A stretch of DNA of 64,000 bases, from NCBI GenBank assembly GCA_030390025.1, contig CM059432.1, positions 52,640,001 to 52,704,000 on the forward strand, in the 5' to 3' direction. Position numbers and translations under genes: made by a program. Source of the DNA: Squalus acanthias (taxonomy: Eukaryota). This document shows positions 3,524 to 16,523 of this stretch, piece by piece. Numbering within the stretch: the stretch's first letter is position 1; every line of letters starts with the position of its first letter. The notes below the pieces were generated by a model, which had not been told where the DNA came from, did no database searches, and saw only the letters and a program-made list of their open reading frames with translations.

Positions 3524-4473
3524 ATTGTTTGCAGGAAGGAGGAGATGATTATTTGGAGACCATAGTTGCAGTATCATTCTACTGAATTACAACATTTAAT
3601 AAGTAATTAGCAAAATAATTTTGTTTAAAGGACATTGAAAAGCATTTTTTGTGAATTGGACTAAGCCTTAGTTGTATTAGAATTTTGCAGACATACATTG
3701 ATGGTTCACTCCATTTCTGTTCTGAAATTGGTTTGCAAGTATATGCAGCTATTTATTAAGTTACTGATACTGTTGTCTATTTAGGAGATACTATACAATC
3801 AGCAAGGGCACTCACTATTGAATAAGTAGGGGGACCACCATGACCACAAAGGTTTTCAGGTGTGGGGGGTAAGTAGGAAGTAATCGGGAGCGATTGAATG
3901 TATTTAATATTGGATTTTATAACTGGACAGGTGCAGATGACATCCATTTACACAGGAGCTTTATACCCAAGGATTCTACTGAGTATTGTTGGTATATAAA
4001 TATGAGGCTTTTGGGCATTGTTCCACAGATATTTTCCAGATTGAATCACAGAACAGTAATCAAGCAAAGACCTCAAGAAAGGAATGAATGGATTTTTGTC
4101 TTTTGGGAGAGACTTTTTATTCACAATGCAATTGCCTCTTTGGCTGATTCAATGCTGCAGTATGAGTGGCTAATAATGTGGGATATCTGAAACTCTTAGG
4201 GTGGGAAAGCTGGGATTGACTGCCCTGTGCTTTAGTTGGATTGCCATTTTTTCATGGTTGCCAACAGCAATAAGTTGTCATTCATGTGGATCAAGTGGTA
4301 ATATCCAATGTAAAGGCAGAAAATAGGAATAAATTCACCTAGCCTCTATTCTGTGACCTCGCTTACCACTGATAAAATTGGAGCCAAAAATTGGAGTGTG
4401 ATTTGCTATAAAGCTAAGATTAAGGGGTGATTTGAAGAAGTTGTAAATAGATTCAAGTATGTAGAACTATGCC

Positions 4474-4607
4474 AAAAGCAAAATACTGCGGGTGCTGGAA
4501 ATCTGAAATAAAAACAGAAAATGCTGGAAACACTCAGCAGGTCAAGCAGCATCTGTGGAGAGAGAAACAAAGATGATGTTTCAGGTGGATGACCTTTCAT
4601 CAGAACT
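4474..4607 (-). mobile_element. Short repeat of a second hammerhead-bearing family (probably Penelope-derived); related pieces at 1-66, 638-731 and 30588-30760
   Basis: Four copies share CTGAGTRTTTCCAGCATTTTCTGTTT...CAGATTTCCAGCAYCYGCAGTATTTT; the minus strand here reads CTGATGA-A-AGGT-CATCC-ACCT-GAAAC. Confidence 0.7.
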
Positions 4608-4745
4608 GTTATCACTTCTGCACAAGCAAGCTGTAGTCATTATACCATATTGTGATCGCAGTAACAATTGTTTTTAAAATCTGTCATCATAAAATGTTCC
4701 ACACAGCAGCTTTCTCTCCCAGATATCTTTTTATATAAAGGCATA

Positions 4746-4942
4746 GGGGGAAAAATTTGGTTGCTTTGCGCCTCCTGTTAGCGCCCTAAGAGGGCGATGT
4801 GCCGGGTGGCCATTTTTGTTGCTGGCCGCCTGCCAGCACCTGTCTCTGCTGCCGTCCCCGGCCTCATGACACCCCCACCCTCCACGGAGTGCGCCCTGGC
4901 GAAGTTAGCGCCCCAAAAGGGGCGCGACACAACTTTTCCCCC
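4746..4942. mobile_element. MITE (Harbinger-like)
   Basis: GGGGGAAAA / TTTTCCCCC termini flanked by ATA on both sides; GC-rich interior. Confidence 0.6.
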
Positions 4943-7356
4943 ATAGTACTTAAAACTGTTGCTGTGTATTCATTTCTCAGTGTAGAAATAGTTAAAGGAA
5001 TTCTGCTTTAATCGCATAGGTTGCCATTTGTCATGAACAGGTTCCTGAAATCTTTAATATAACTTGAATAAACACAGAGCTCTAAATCCACAGGATGTGG
5101 TCCTTCTGGTTTCATAAATTACAGAAAGGTTTGCTATATGAAGTTTGCTCTTTTTAAAAAAAAAGAAGTTTTGTTACTGATTTGTGTATAAAAGAAAATT
5201 TGTTGAAGTTTCGTAACAAATTAATTGTAGCTAGCTCTTAAGTGAATACTAATTAATGACAGTGATTTTCTGTTCATTGGTCTAGTGTGGTTCTCATGTC
5301 AAGCTGGCTTGCAACACCTTAAACCACTTTAGTGTTGATGTAAAATGGTTCCTCTTATGCCTCAAGGAAGTACTATATGTTTTTGTTTTGAAATATTTGA
5401 ACTTTTAATTTGGAAATCTCACGCTCTGTAATGGAGCAGCAGTAGTGTGACTGGTGTAATTGAAACTATTGTCTGATGTGCTGCTGTAGAAAAGAGGCCA
5501 GTCTGCAGCATACGGATTTTGACCACTTAACCAACTTTTAGAATGGCACTATTTTAATTTGAATCTCGGGTGACCGATGTAAGCCAGGTTCCAGCATTTA
5601 CACTGCTAAATCCGCCTCTTATCCTTGCAACAAGCTCACAGACCCACAAAAACAACCTGGGAGCTGGATTTAACAGTGTACATGTTGGGAGCTAGCTTTA
5701 TAGACTGTTGGAATTAAACCGCACCATTATAAAAACATGACCTCAGGATGTCCCAAAGCACTTTGCAACCAATGAAGTACTTTTGAAGTGTAGTCACTGT
5801 TGTAATGTAGGATAGCCTGCTGACGCTTACTATGTCGGCTGAAATATGAGTGGCCATTTGAACAAGGTACCGGGCTTTGGGGGGCGGGGTGCGGCGCATC
5901 GGAATCCAAGGAGCCATGCTCCAGCATGAAGTTTGATGCCTTCAAGGGAGGAGAGAAGTATATATTTAAAATGCTTGGTTTTGAATGTTTGCAGCAGTGA
6001 AATCGCTGCTCTCTCTGACTTGTTAATGGAAAACCAACTCACCATTTCATTTTCATTCTTAATCTGCTTTCAAATGTGCACTGTTAGTTTATCAGTGAGT
6101 GTTCTGTTACTGGCTGATTTGCAGTACTCTATGACCTCAGAATCTTCCAGTGATTGGTTTTGGAATTTGTTTTTATTTAAAGTACACTCACCTGGCATTG
6201 AACTTTACTTTTGATCTGATAAAAGTACATGGCTTAATGTTCTCCTTTCGGCTCCTCTGATTTGTGTTTATCTTGGGTGTGTCTGGCTCTGTGATAGACC
6301 TTTCCAGAATGTCTGTTATAAGGTGTATGGCCTACCATACAGGTTTCCTGAGTGGTATTTCTGAAGCTTTCTTTTGTATATAGGCATGATTCTCTGAGCT
6401 ACTTTTATTTGGTTTCATCAAGGCCAGCCCATTAATAGCAGAACAGTCTCAACTGAGCAGACCTTTGCGAAAAGAGGTAATCTAAGGTCACACATACATA
6501 CATATATCTGCTTTGTATTACAAACTAAAGCTTTCAAGACCACACAGGTAACTATTAAGGATAATGGAATTTGGGGGAGTAATACATTGGATTAAAACTA
6601 GTTAGAAGGGAGGAAGCAGATTGCAGGAGTTACAGGCAGTTTTGCAGTGGTTTGACATGGGTGGGTTATGATGTCCTACAGCGTTCTGTTCTTGAATGAC
6701 TTCTGTTCACTCTGTACATCAATGCCTTGGATATAGGGCTGGAGGGAGTAGTGTCCAAGTTTACAGACAATATTAAATAGGAGGAAGAGTAAGTAATTCT
6801 TGAGTTGTGGGGCCAGTGGGATAATTAGAGGGTCCTGGATGTGGCAGCATTGGGAGAGGTTCCAAGGTGGGAGTGCTGGAATGGTAGTGGAGGCGTGTGG
6901 CAGTAGCTTTGGCAAGTTTTAGTTGAAATGGACAAAGCACATTAAAGTACAAGAAATCCATAGTCCTGAATGGGTGACTTAACCAAATAAACATAAATGC
7001 ATAGATTATATTGTATTCACTTCCATTGTTCAATTTAATTGTGTTATCAGTCCACATGATTTAGAATCTGGGTAAATTGATCTGTTTTGCTTTGTGTTGT
7101 ACTTTGATGAAAGAAAAATTGTATCTGAAACATTCTTTTAAACTTAGGATTTTTTTTTTCTTAGTGAGTCAACTCGGGCAATTCTCATTTGCTGTAATTA
7201 TTATTGAAATAAAATTCACTGTTCCCTACCAGAGGATGAAAATACAACTCCATTCATAAAGCATCTTCCATTTATCCAGAAGAATCAGAACTGAACTCTG
7301 ATGCTTCACCATATAATCTAAAATGTATTAATATAAAGGTTACATGTATTAAACTA

Positions 7357-8418
7357 AAGCTCATCTTGTCCATGAGATCCACCTCCTGCTCCCTCAACCC
7401 TATTCCCTTCAAATTGCTGACCACCCAACCTCCCTTCCTGGCCCCCATGTTGGCTGCTATTGTAAATGGTTCCCTCCCCTTCAAATCTGCTGTCATCCCA
7501 CCCTTGACCCCTCTGTCCTTGCAAACTACCACCCCATCTCTAACCTCCCTTTCCTTTCAAGTCCTTGAACGTGTTGTTGTCTCCCAAATTCGTGCCCATC
7601 TTTACCGCAACTCCAGGTTTCCGCCCTTGCCACAACACTGAAACGACCCTTATCAATGACATCCTATGTGACTGTGACCAAGGCAAACTATCCCTCCTCG
7701 TCCTTCTCGATCTGTCTGCAGCCTTTGACATGGTTAACCACACCATCTTCCTCCAATGGCTCACCTCCATTGTCCAGCTGGGTGGGACCACCTACTTCCA
7801 CTTCCGTAACATCTCCCGTCTCCATCCCTGCCTCAGCTTATCCTGCTGAAACCCTCCTCCATGCCTTTGCTACCTCTAGACTCGACTACTCTGAAGCTCT
7901 GCTGGCCAATCTCTCATCTTCCACCCTACATAAACTTGAACTCCTCCAAATCTCTGCTTCCCATATCCTAACTCTCTCCAAGTCCCATTCACTCATCCCT
8001 CCCCCTGTGCTCGCTGACCTACATTGGCTCCCGGTCCGGCAACACCTCAATTTTAAAATTTTCATCCTTCTTTTCAATTCTGTCCATGCCTTGCCCCTCC
8101 CTATCTCTAACCTCCTCCAGCCCTACAACCCCCACAAAGATCCTCCAATTCCAGCCTGTTGCGCATCACCCGATTTTCATCGCTCCACCATTGGCGGCCA
8201 TACCTTCAGCTGCCTAGGTCTTGACCTCAGGAATTCTCTCCCTAAACCTCTCTCTCTCCTCCTTTAACACACTCCTTAAAACCTGCCTCTTGACCAAGCT
8301 TTTGGCCACTTGTCCTAATATCTCCTTCTGCAACTCGGTGTCAAATTTTGTTTAACTCTCCTATGAAGTGCCTTGGGGTGTTTTGCTACGTGACAGGCGC
8401 TGTATTAATGCAAGTTAT
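7357..8418 (+). mobile_element. L2 LINE fragment, internally deleted
   Basis: LLDLSAAFD, SRLDY and LHWLPV motifs; 3' end TTAATGCAAGTT. Confidence 0.9.
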
Positions 8419-9024
8419 GTATATTTCAACCAAATTTTATAAGGTTTATAACATTTTTTCCTCTGCAAAACATTTGCTATGACCTATACATAGTACTGGT
8501 CTAAATGCTTTAAATAAACTATCTGCACCACAAAAGCTGTATTTTTTTTTCCTGTTCAAACTGGTAGCTACAGTACAAGTTCCAGCCAGGCACTGCATTG
8601 TTCATACTGCTTGACTTCTCACTAGCTCCGATTCAACTTCTCCTGCCCAAGAGGGAAGCTCTTGAGCATACTTGTACTCATTTGCAGAGCTCTGCTGGCG
8701 GCTGTTAAATTTTAAATATTTCCGTGGCATAGGTAGGGGTACCCAGGCACTCAATGTATTTACATAATCTATGGTTAAGGTATTGGTAAATATTAAATTC
8801 TCTAGCTTTTTAAAAAACCTGGTTTGACAGCACACCAGTGTTTCCCTCCTCACCAATCACTCTCACCGGGCAGGGTTTTGCACTTTGAGCGGCTGTGTGC
8901 TACTTCCTGCTACTGGAAGAGTTTTCCTTAGTCATTTCAAGGTTCTTTGGTATCAGGGAGTGTTCTGGCAAATACAAAACTCCCTCATTAATTTTGAAAG
9001 GCTTCAAAATACAACACTTGCTAA

Positions 9025-10907: not shown

Positions 10908-11060
10908 CATTTTTCAAATGTGAAATGTGGGCATTGCATGTCGGCAGGCTGCTGAACTTGTTGAGGAAAGCATCGTAGTCAATCCCAAACCTGTCCATCG
11001 ACACACCTTGCAGCAAGGCTCACTGGATCTCAGCTACATTTCTTCTACTTTGGCTCATCA

Positions 11061-11557
11061 TAAGAACATAACATAAGAAATAGGAGCAGGATTAGGCCAT
11101 ATGGCCCTTCGAGCCTGCTCCGCCTTTCAATAAGATCATGATCTTTGACTTCAACTCCACTTTCCCGCGCGATCCCCCATATCCCTTGATTGCTAACTTA
11201 CCTGACGAAGGAGCGATAGCTCCGAAAGCTTGTAAAATTAAATAAATCTGTTGGACTATAACCTGGTGTTGTGCGACTTCTCATTTTTGTCCCCTAGAAT
11301 AGGTAGAGAATTTCAAAGACTCACAACCCTCTGAGTGAAGAAATTCCTCCTCATCTCTCTTAAATGGCTGACCCCTTATCCTGAGACTTTGCCCCCTAGT
11401 TCTAGACTCTCCAGCCAGGGGAAAACAACCTCTCAGCATCTACCCTGTCAATCTCCCTCAGAATCTTATGTTACAATGAGATCACCTCTCATTCTTCTCT
11501 CTGGGGTTTAGTATAGGCCCAATCTACTCGAGACCTCCACATAGGACAACCCTCTAA
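11061..11557 (-). mobile_element. CR1 3' end interrupted by the hammerhead-bearing fragment
   Basis: AACATAAGAAATAGGAGCAGG tail; the CCCTTGATT/CCCCTAG motif (contiguous at 28991-29006) is split here by 11192-11290. Confidence 0.88.
11198..11235 (+). ncRNA. Minimal type-I hammerhead ribozyme motif within a Penelope-like fragment (about 11192-11292)
   Basis: UUAC-CUGACGA-A-GGAGC(GAUA)GCUCC-GAAA-GCUU-GUAA, followed by the same downstream sequence (CTGTTGGACTATAACCTGGTGTTGTGCGAC) as the 14.8-kb element. Confidence 0.8.
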
Positions 11558-14315: not shown

Positions 14316-14674
14316 CCGTTGCTGGATAACTAGTACTTTAAGGAATATAAAAATGAAACCAAACACCAATGATAGGACACAAAAAAAAGTGTTTATTTGT
14401 TTGCCGTTCTTTTGGTTTTGCTTCAACAAATTGCTGTCATTTACTATTGCTACTCCCGGTGACATAGCTCTACTTAACCAGCTAGCGTTAATAAATTTAA
14501 TGTAAGGTAACGAGAGGGAACTCTGAACTCTTAAAACCTCCCTTTCAGAATTGTATGTTCAAATTGTTTTTCTTTGAATTATGAGTTTGTAGTTGGACCA
14601 TAGAAATTTTCAAAATTTGTTGGTCTGCTGAAGCTTAATAACGAAGTACTTAACACCACTGCTACCTTAGCTAT

Positions 14675-14921
14675 TGAGAGGTCGCACAACACCAGGTTAT
14701 AGTCCAACAGTTTTATTTTAACTCACAAGCTTTCGGAGTTACAACTCCTTCGTCAGGTGAAGTGAGGAGATACAGAAGCTGTATCTCCTCACTTCACCTG
14801 ACGAAGGAGTTGTAACTCCGAAAGCTTGTGAGTTAAAATAAAACTGTTGGACTATAACCTGGTGTTGTGCGACCTCTCAATTTTGTCCACCCCAGTCCAA
14901 CACCGGCATCTCCGCATCATG
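14675..14921. mobile_element. Young Penelope-like pLTR insertion in inverted (palindromic) configuration
   Basis: Perfect 103-bp arms 14673-14775 and 14779-14881 around an AAG loop; direct repeat ACCTTAGCTAT at 14664-14674 and 14922-14932; arms carry a hammerhead core followed by an A-rich tract. Confidence 0.85.
14793..14832 (+). ncRNA. Minimal type-I hammerhead ribozyme motif (mirror copy on minus strand at 14722-14761)
   Basis: UUCAC-CUGACGA-A-GGAGU(UGUA)ACUCC-GAAA-GCUU-GUGAG: intact core, 5-bp stem II, 5-bp stem I, palindromic AGCU helix III. Confidence 0.8.
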
Positions 14922-16523
14922 ACCTTAGCTATAACATTGAAATATTTAATACGAGAACAATCTCGGCTAGTGTTCCACAAATTCTGATACTGTCACTCAT
15001 TACTTATAGCTCAATTCTCCTTTACTTCAAAAAACATGCAAAATATATGTATATTGCTTGGTTAAGCAGCTTGTTTCAAACTGCGCAAGTGCTAGAATTA
15101 AGCTTTTTCCATTCAATTTTTTAAAAAGCTGAAATACTTCTTTTTTCTTTGTGATTTTCAAAGGTTTCAGCTTGCTCAAGTTACTCAGTTACAGTGCTTA
15201 CATGCCTTTTCAAGTAACATTACCCCATTCTCCTGGTGTCGTCAGGGTGAACGTGTCCTGAACTTAATTATGGCTTCGACTGCCTGATTTGAAATATTAC
15301 CTTTTTGTCTTGAGCGATGAATAGGATGGGTGGCCTATTGACTCAAAATTACAAGGATGCAGAACATTGTTGGATGCAGAACATTGTTGTATAACTGTTC
15401 ACTCTTGAACAAAACAAAGCAGCTTGGTCCATTCTGACAGACAACCGGCCCATTACTAACAGGATGTTGATGGTTATTTCCCCACTGCCTTTTCTCCATG
15501 ATTCTTTGCTTCCACTGTCAAACCTGGATGTTTCCTCAAGAATAAATATCTGCATCAAATTTGCAGTTTACAATTATTACTACATTGCTTGTTTTCATAC
15601 TTTGGTGTATGCTGAACTCTGGGGAAACAAAGGCCCGGATTTACTGGGGCCTATGCCCACGTACGCGCTATAAGTGCCTCGTAAGTTCTGGGTTTTCACA
15701 TGCGCTGCACATGCACGAATACCTGGCACTTGCGATCTGTGAAGAATCTTCTTGACAGATCCTCCACATCCCCGGGAAATGGACATCCGCTGGCGGAGAG
15801 TTGGCCTGTTTGCCCATTAATTTTAAACATGTAATTGTTTTCATTTCGTGATAAAATGTATTTTTTGGGTTATTCCTGGACCATCTACCTGGTGCGTAGA
15901 TTTATTGCGGTTCAGAGGCATCCGCCCATGGGAAGCCTCCGACCGCAAATTGAGGCTCAAAATCTTCAATTTAACTCTGATTTTTTCATGTTTTTTCATT
16001 CCATCTAATAGTTTATTTCAAGGCTGTTATCCAAGAAATGCCAGCCTTCTCGCTGATTTTAGTTTATATTGCAATCTGAAGAGGCAAGTAATGAAATAAA
16101 TCAAAGTTTAATTGCAGGTCAGAATAGTTTTGGGATTACAAGCCTTATTTGAATTTACTGTTAATTGTTTCAGTTTGAAACTTGCTTTCTCTGTTTTTCA
16201 CGTTGTTGGTCAGTAACATCTAGATCAGCTATCTGTAAAGGTTGCAGTGATGTCTTACTACACAGGAAAGGAATCAAACACTTTTCTACAGTTTTATGCT
16301 TTAAGCAAAGATTGGTTACTGCAAATTACTGATCTGAATATCCTTGTGTATAATACAGTATGAGCTCTCATGTATGCATAATCTAATCCCTTGGTATTAA
16401 AGCACAAATATGTTTTAATGTCCTAAATTTAATCTTGTAAAAGTCATACCTGCCGATTTTTTAAATTTCCTGTTTTTTTAATTCTTTGCTTCTGAATGTA
16501 ACAAATTCAGGTCTGCTTGTAGG

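Follow-up and report, generated by a model that had tools for sequence, protein, structure and literature searches.

A truncated Penelope-like element end in Squalus acanthias bearing a predicted minimal hammerhead whose structure was likely under selection in source elements

Within the 64,000-nt stretch of Squalus acanthias DNA analysed here (the window), the hammerhead-like sequence at 11.2 kb lies in the 5'-truncated end of a young Penelope-like element (PLE) of subfamily B. Its fixed paired differences from subfamily A likely persisted because transposition continued only from source elements whose stems and core were intact. Selection on RNA structure and on the core likely acted in these source elements, because templated changes keep pairing, mutants at core position A6 are unamplified, and the motif is 84% identical between subfamilies within a UTR that is 46% identical. 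The features on which the analysis rests are as follows.

11060..11191, minus strand: 3' end of the host LINE, tail side of the insertion, presumably CR1-type by its ORF2 C-terminus and tail repeat
11189..11292, plus strand: 5'-truncated PLE pLTR fragment, subfamily B, short tail, ending 61 nt after the predicted cut
11198..11235, plus strand: predicted minimal type I hammerhead, with the architecture given in PMC4209133
11198-11201 and 11232-11235, plus strand: stem I, with core CUGACGA at 11202-11208 and an extra A at 11209
11210-11214 and 11219-11223, plus strand: stem II of the 11.2-kb hammerhead, with loop GAUA
11224-11227, plus strand: GAAA, followed by the palindrome AGCU at 11227-11230 and H17 = U at 11231
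11291..11500, minus strand: host LINE, ORF2 side of the insertion, by comparison with uninterrupted copies
14664..14674 and 14922-14932, plus strand: left and right copies of the 11-bp target-site duplication of the 14.8-kb twin, read from the sequence
14673..14775, minus strand: subfamily A copy, minus arm of the inverted twin, short tail, hammerhead core from 14756
14779..14923, plus strand: subfamily A copy, plus arm, long tail to the element's ATG, by sequence comparison
14794-14831, plus strand: predicted hammerhead of the plus arm, predicted cut after 14827

The 11.2-kb motif (11198-11235) reads UUAC-CUGACGA-A-GGAGC-GAUA-GCUCC-GAAA-GC-UU-GUAA and its 14.8-kb counterpart (14794-14831) reads UCAC-CUGACGA-A-GGAGU-UGUA-ACUCC-GAAA-GC-UU-GUGA, so that 6 of 38 positions differ. 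Stem I pair 3 and the stem II closing pair are each changed on both strands, the other two differences lie in loop II, and the core and AGCU palindrome are unchanged. Four stem changes would fall as two whole pairs among nine with a probability of 0.012, and the chance that all six changes avoid the 16 unpaired core and palindrome bases is 0.027. The paired changes in stem I and in the stem II closing pair had been reported in the preliminary description of this DNA and are confirmed by both sequences, and the cut it predicted after 11231, with U at H17, fits hammerhead numbering. Its statement that the core is invariant is correct for these two copies but not for the family, in which N7 is C, G or A and H17 is U or C. 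A one-base deletion, as the upstream register of a MAFFT alignment would have it, was rejected as the sole cause of the UCAC to UUAC change, given that UUAC/GUGA, CUAC and GUAC variants exist with unshifted upstream sequence; an upstream deletion in subfamily B is possible.

The motif pattern has three matches in the window versus none in 100 shuffles. Both conserved boxes and a U-H cleavage site are present (CUGANGA at 11202-11208, GAAA at 11224-11227, U-H at 11230-11231), as are helix I, which has only 3-4 bp, helix II, an unpaired base before position 10.1 and the G10.1-C11.1 pair, and a palindromic minimal helix III from which a dimer fold can be drawn. An Rfam scan gave no hammerhead match at the gathering score or at E<=10; these minimal forms are without helix III. 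A match to mir-1759 was set aside as the palindrome alone, and a search of PDB sequences returned 0 matches. Single-strand folding is weak (z of -2.2 for 11190-11245, -1.6 for the A copy and close to 0 when longer pieces are folded). In modelling of the dimer, the hammerhead fold reaches -18.7 kcal/mol, whereas a competing 6-bp AAGCUU duplex in which A14 and U17 are paired is more stable at -25.1 kcal/mol, which would be in line with low unaided activity.

The fragment interrupts the 3' end of a minus-strand LINE, presumably CR1 judging by its ORF2 C-terminal motifs and 3' microsatellite tail; the translation agrees with CR1 motifs. Other copies of this LINE, at 2.6, 23 and 28.9 kb of the window, are uninterrupted at the corresponding point (GATT^CCCCTAG), and the fragment is therefore younger than its host, as had been claimed. 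The location 11192 to 11292 given earlier is refined to 11189-11292, the junctions being formed by bases common to host and fragment (ATT at 11189-11191 and CC at 11291-11292). No target-site duplication of the insert was found at these junctions. Separately, about 55 nt of the host LINE are absent between 11301 and 11302, starting 11 nt beyond the insert, by comparison with uninterrupted copies.

In a search of the 3.7-Gb genome, 11190-11290 was 100% identical to 41 of the 44 genomic matches listed (40 of 695 candidates scored), and the exact 11.2-kb motif was found in both arms of 17 inverted twins. The 14.8-kb sequence, itself an inverted twin with arms of 103 nt that are 100% complementary, has a separate set of 99-100% matches. 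Because 41 identical copies exist elsewhere in the genome, the differences between the 11.2-kb and 14.8-kb copies are fixed differences between subfamilies B and A, and the 11.2-kb copy is no mutated sister of the 14.8-kb copy. That the 11.2-kb copy is a decayed sister which acquired its paired changes by chance after insertion is extremely improbable: the pairwise probability in its favour, about 0.01, comes from two visible copies, but the 41 identical copies refute the idea, and the 17 twins with the exact motif in both arms speak against it too. A third subfamily, C, combines the stem I of A (UCAC/GUGA) with the stem II of B (GGAGC-GAUA-GCUCC); the changes in stem I and stem II are therefore unlinked.

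Genome-wide, a loose pattern recovers 68,838 copies of the family, about half of which sit in inverted twins. Full-length copies of A (L092) and C (L093) are units of about 3.1 kb with an 892-aa ORF and one motif per pLTR; two motifs flank the ORF in A (L091, L092) and in C (L093), and they lie 3114 nt (L092) and 3140 nt (L093) apart around a 921-codon open frame. In the subfamily B copy examined (L094), 788 codons of this ORF are present, followed by the motif 224 nt further on. The ORF matches RVT_1 above the cut-off (E of 8e-9), and its C-terminal GIY-YIG match lies just under the cut-off (E of 2e-4; 22.0 versus 22.6 bits), with the motifs visible in the ORF product (P0001). In that product a C-x4-C-x2-C linker precedes the endonuclease, and VVY and YIG are separated by a segment with two Cys (CCHH). 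The hammerhead motif lies 224-343 nt past the stop codon, and the ATG follows the motif at a distance of about 92 nt; because it is outside the coding sequence, protein coding places no constraint on it. Between B and A, identity is 93% over the last 900 nt of the ORF, 46% in the UTR, 84% in the motif and 91% in the tail.

Copies of the family bear the PLE signature of pLTRs, inverted 5'-truncated copies and an optional tail of 30-40 nt. Their 3' ends are bimodal, 104 of 107 copies ending 51-62 or 84-103 nt past the predicted cut, a distribution that matches the two-start tail described in PMC11167929; their 5' ends are scattered, with continuous extents. A fixed 5' end that would mark a transcription start was rejected on account of this continuity, the apparent piles at 195 and 52 being the stop of ungapped extension against the reference used. 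Of 15 sequencing runs listed, all at contig level and one of them recorded as RNA, four were examined, and the family, including its GUGA variant, was seen in three. We also observed that the 3' UTR diverges much faster than the ORF (82% versus 98% identity for A-C, 46% versus 93% for A-B; L092, L093, L094), which suggests UTR replacement or fast evolution. The genome holds a second, older hammerhead-like repeat family as well, with stem I AGUU/AACU, stem II AGGUC/GACCU, the palindrome ACGU and the same core; 13 copies occur in loci such as L004, L046 and L047, and decayed copies lie in the window at about 4603 (minus strand) and about 30712 (minus strand).

Inverted twins allow changes that were templated by the RNA to be told apart from those that arose after insertion, assuming that both arms have one source. 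At stem I pair 3, counted as copies and not as events, the genome holds 44,920 C-G, 25,822 U-A, 2,263 U·G and 464 C·A, and among the first 100 matches listed for each class, the copies lying in twins with the same state in both arms numbered 48, 54, 44 and 8, respectively. The difference in twin copies between U·G and C·A (p=9e-6) indicates that U·G was an RNA state and that C·A mostly was not. Against strict pairing, the 464 copies with C·A exceed about 7-10 times the 40-70 per substitution expected from decay, and four twins share this state. Stem II pair 3 is G·U in 18,802 copies versus A·C in 27 and G-C in 13, with no twins for the last two states. Of the 198 core A6 mutants, the first 100 in the list contain not one inverted twin, and in all four cases in which the partner arm was fetched the mutation was private to one arm.

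The same pattern holds across stem II in the 126 twins analysed, nine of an original 135 having been left out because their stem II state was the reason for choosing them. The 39 changes in stem II that are common to both arms all keep pairing, and two of the six private changes break it. One-sided changes common to both arms are all G·U, and pair-preserving one-sided changes are confined to three stem II sites. Among 52 recurrent haplotypes, each seen at least twice in a sample of 415 copies that was deliberately enriched for rare states, 95.9% of cells are paired, a value reached in none of 500 shuffles and compared with 23-48% in slid controls; this count includes 13 haplotypes classed as CpG decay, selected mutants or near-duplicates. 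AGCU is kept in 52 of 52 haplotypes, a figure obtained with search patterns that required AGCU; 11 of the 52 have a broken outer pair in stem I. Apart from A6 and N7, the patterns also prescribed the core bases, and only A6 was tested free of that bias. Random mixing of young-subfamily RNAs in twins was rejected, since the two arms of twins picked via A, B or C belong to one subfamily.

These paired differences correspond to few independent events. The stem I switch amounts to roughly one event along one backbone transition of the ORF tree; in trees of 42 and 51 rows, the latter with at most four rows per haplotype, the U-A clade is linked to the C-G clade through a middle group of poor resolution in which U·G, C·A and C-G all occur. 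On the 51-row tree there are three changes of the 3' letter and five of the 5' letter, and an independent-pairs test, which found three supported independent pairs (p=1), has no power. The U-A closing pair of stem II occurs in 272 copies, and among the first 100 listed 86 have the loop of A and five have GAUA in C flanks, contexts that point to one or two origins. Pairs with a two-sided change number two, which is not above shuffles (139 of 500). The earlier claim that two covarying pairs show selection is thus upheld as to selection, through the twins, A6 and motif conservation, and not as to the pairs themselves, which are few independent events.

Such small numbers leave room for an account in which the paired changes come from one or two lucky source lineages together with wholesale exchange of the stem II hairpin, by gene conversion or template switching, in place of stepwise compensation. 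Stem II is identical in B and C, which sit at opposite ends of the ORF tree, and A and C, with 98% ORF identity, differ at four stem-loop bases. Block differences in stem II occur in 10 of the 37 twins whose arms are at most 30 nt apart versus 4 of 89 with longer spacing (p=7e-4), and the tails of block-differing short twins are nearly identical. The U-A closing pair is found in A, but also within C flanks at L307-L309 and in a single arm of L310, a twin of the old group, and the tree test is without power. However, this account leaves stem I unexplained, whose two strands are separated by 30 nt and in which 2,263 copies make up a templated U·G class, and it explains neither why one-sided changes common to both arms are all G·U nor why core mutants went unamplified; we therefore consider it unlikely, though a genuine competitor. 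A somewhat less probable reading again is that the fold is kept as a binding or positioning site for the element protein or a host factor, with cleavage vestigial or dispensable. All counted copies come from uncleaved RNA, stem I is merely 3-4 bp with an outer pair that is often broken, and the tail is conserved as well as the motif (91% versus 84%). By the rules of the hammerhead, N7 is free and H17 is U or C, and the variation seen here obeys them, the palindrome being kept and A6 mutants unamplified, which speaks against this reading, as does a second family in the genome with other stems and another palindrome around the same core. In published work on PLEs, ribozyme mutants of the anole element insert normally in vitro (PMC11167929) and Naiad PLEs thrive without canonical hammerheads (PMC8557442), but the anole motif cleaves with protein, and C3G or G8C abolishes its activity (PMC11167929).

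Closely spaced twins were also observed whose arms differ in the stem II hairpin alone, often carrying the version of another subfamily (L252, L253, L254, L259, L260, L278, L299, L310); in L299 a private tail variant is common to both arms. The block differences in short twins could stem from conversion, from two templates or from assembly polishing. We offer only tentatively, as a doubtful reading, that the family's roughly 69,000 copies preserve the ribozyme variants present in active RNA, a natural mutational scan of a PLE hammerhead, and that the stem II hairpin of about 15 nt is swapped as a block between subfamilies in close twins. If true, active PLE RNA or cDNA would rewrite the hairpin of resident copies, or one insertion would use two RNAs.

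For a subfamily B element whose sources were selected for intact stems and core, a course of events can be proposed by analogy with the anole element. The element protein would nick AT-rich DNA, and reverse transcription would begin internally, from either of two sites that lie about 55 and 95 nt beyond the ribozyme. The RNA copied would be uncleaved, and every counted copy spans the cut site, from which it follows that the counted copies were made from uncleaved RNA. Copying would usually stop early, leaving fragments like 11189-11292, often as inverted twins. Helix III would be built only when two motifs pair via their AGCU palindromes, with predicted self-cleavage after 11231 then following, probably aided by the element protein. 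The exchange of C-G and U-A in stem I most likely passed through single-change intermediates, mainly U·G. An assay of the monomer 11190-11260 against a G5A mutant, as had been suggested, would probably show no cleavage with either the wild type or the mutant and hence be unable to refute a ribozyme, because a single minimal PLE hammerhead did not cleave in PMC4209133 and the anole one needed its protein in PMC11167929.

Reading the motif as a minimal hammerhead of dimer type rests on PMC4209133 and PMC11167929 and on two reviews (PMC6765202, PMC6155905). Minimal hammerheads in metazoan PLE pLTRs have already been reported (Cervera and De la Peña 2014, PMC4209133), in a study that found thousands of copies in each genome, truncated or on opposite strands, and families rich in compensatory changes, but no cleavage by a single minimal PLE hammerhead. 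The 11.2-kb hammerhead is thus ordinary for PLEs, its type and its compensatory variation known since 2014. As far as the available text of that paper goes, copy numbers in coelacanth and Xenopus are 4,000-9,000, compared with about 69,000 in the shark family, sharks and rays are not named, helix II differs from the 5 bp found here, and templated and post-insertion changes are not separated, in contrast to the twin analysis. Our literature search for shark PLE hammerheads and for G-U intermediates in retrotransposon hammerheads, whose coverage did not extend to Repbase/Dfam or the majority of subscription papers, turned up nothing published on the family. Only two points go beyond print as searched: the use of twins to read out which variants were tolerated, and the possible block exchange of stem II.

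The element most closely comparable in mechanism is Poseidon of Anolis carolinensis (PAc; Frangieh et al. 2024, PMC11167929), which likewise has two internal starts of reverse transcription, an optional tail of 30-40 nt, ATT at the insertion site, a pLTR hammerhead and insertion from uncleaved RNA. Its ORF begins in stem II, whereas the ATG of the shark element lies about 92 nt past the cut and the stems are non-coding; its hammerhead needed the element protein for cleavage, and in that study no RNA reads ended at the cut site. The shark ORF has a CX4CxxC linker, which the Penelope/Poseidon clade lacks. Since a CX2-5CxxC linker and a CCHH motif mark Neptune and Nematis PLEs (Craig et al. 2021, PMC8557442), the shark element resembles the Neptune clade of EN+ PLEs in linker and CCHH, a likeness that Nematis may share. 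Animal non-LTR retrozymes (bioRxiv 10.64898/2026.07.22.740005), reported in one chondrichthyan among others, carry type I hammerheads related to those of PLE pLTRs and are tandem non-coding repeats, whereas the 11.2-kb fragment is a solo truncated copy of a coding element.

In vitro, PLE hammerheads show poor cleavage and can be dispensed with for insertion (PMC4209133, PMC11167929). This family gives genomic evidence that points to purifying selection on the stems and on at least one core base in sources that transposed, and it supplies a natural variant series (C-G, U·G, U-A and C·A, with H17 as U or C). Finally, large subfamilies, among them L163, L225, L229 and numerous further loci, carry a self-complementary AUCGAU in loop II that may form a second contact between dimer partners.
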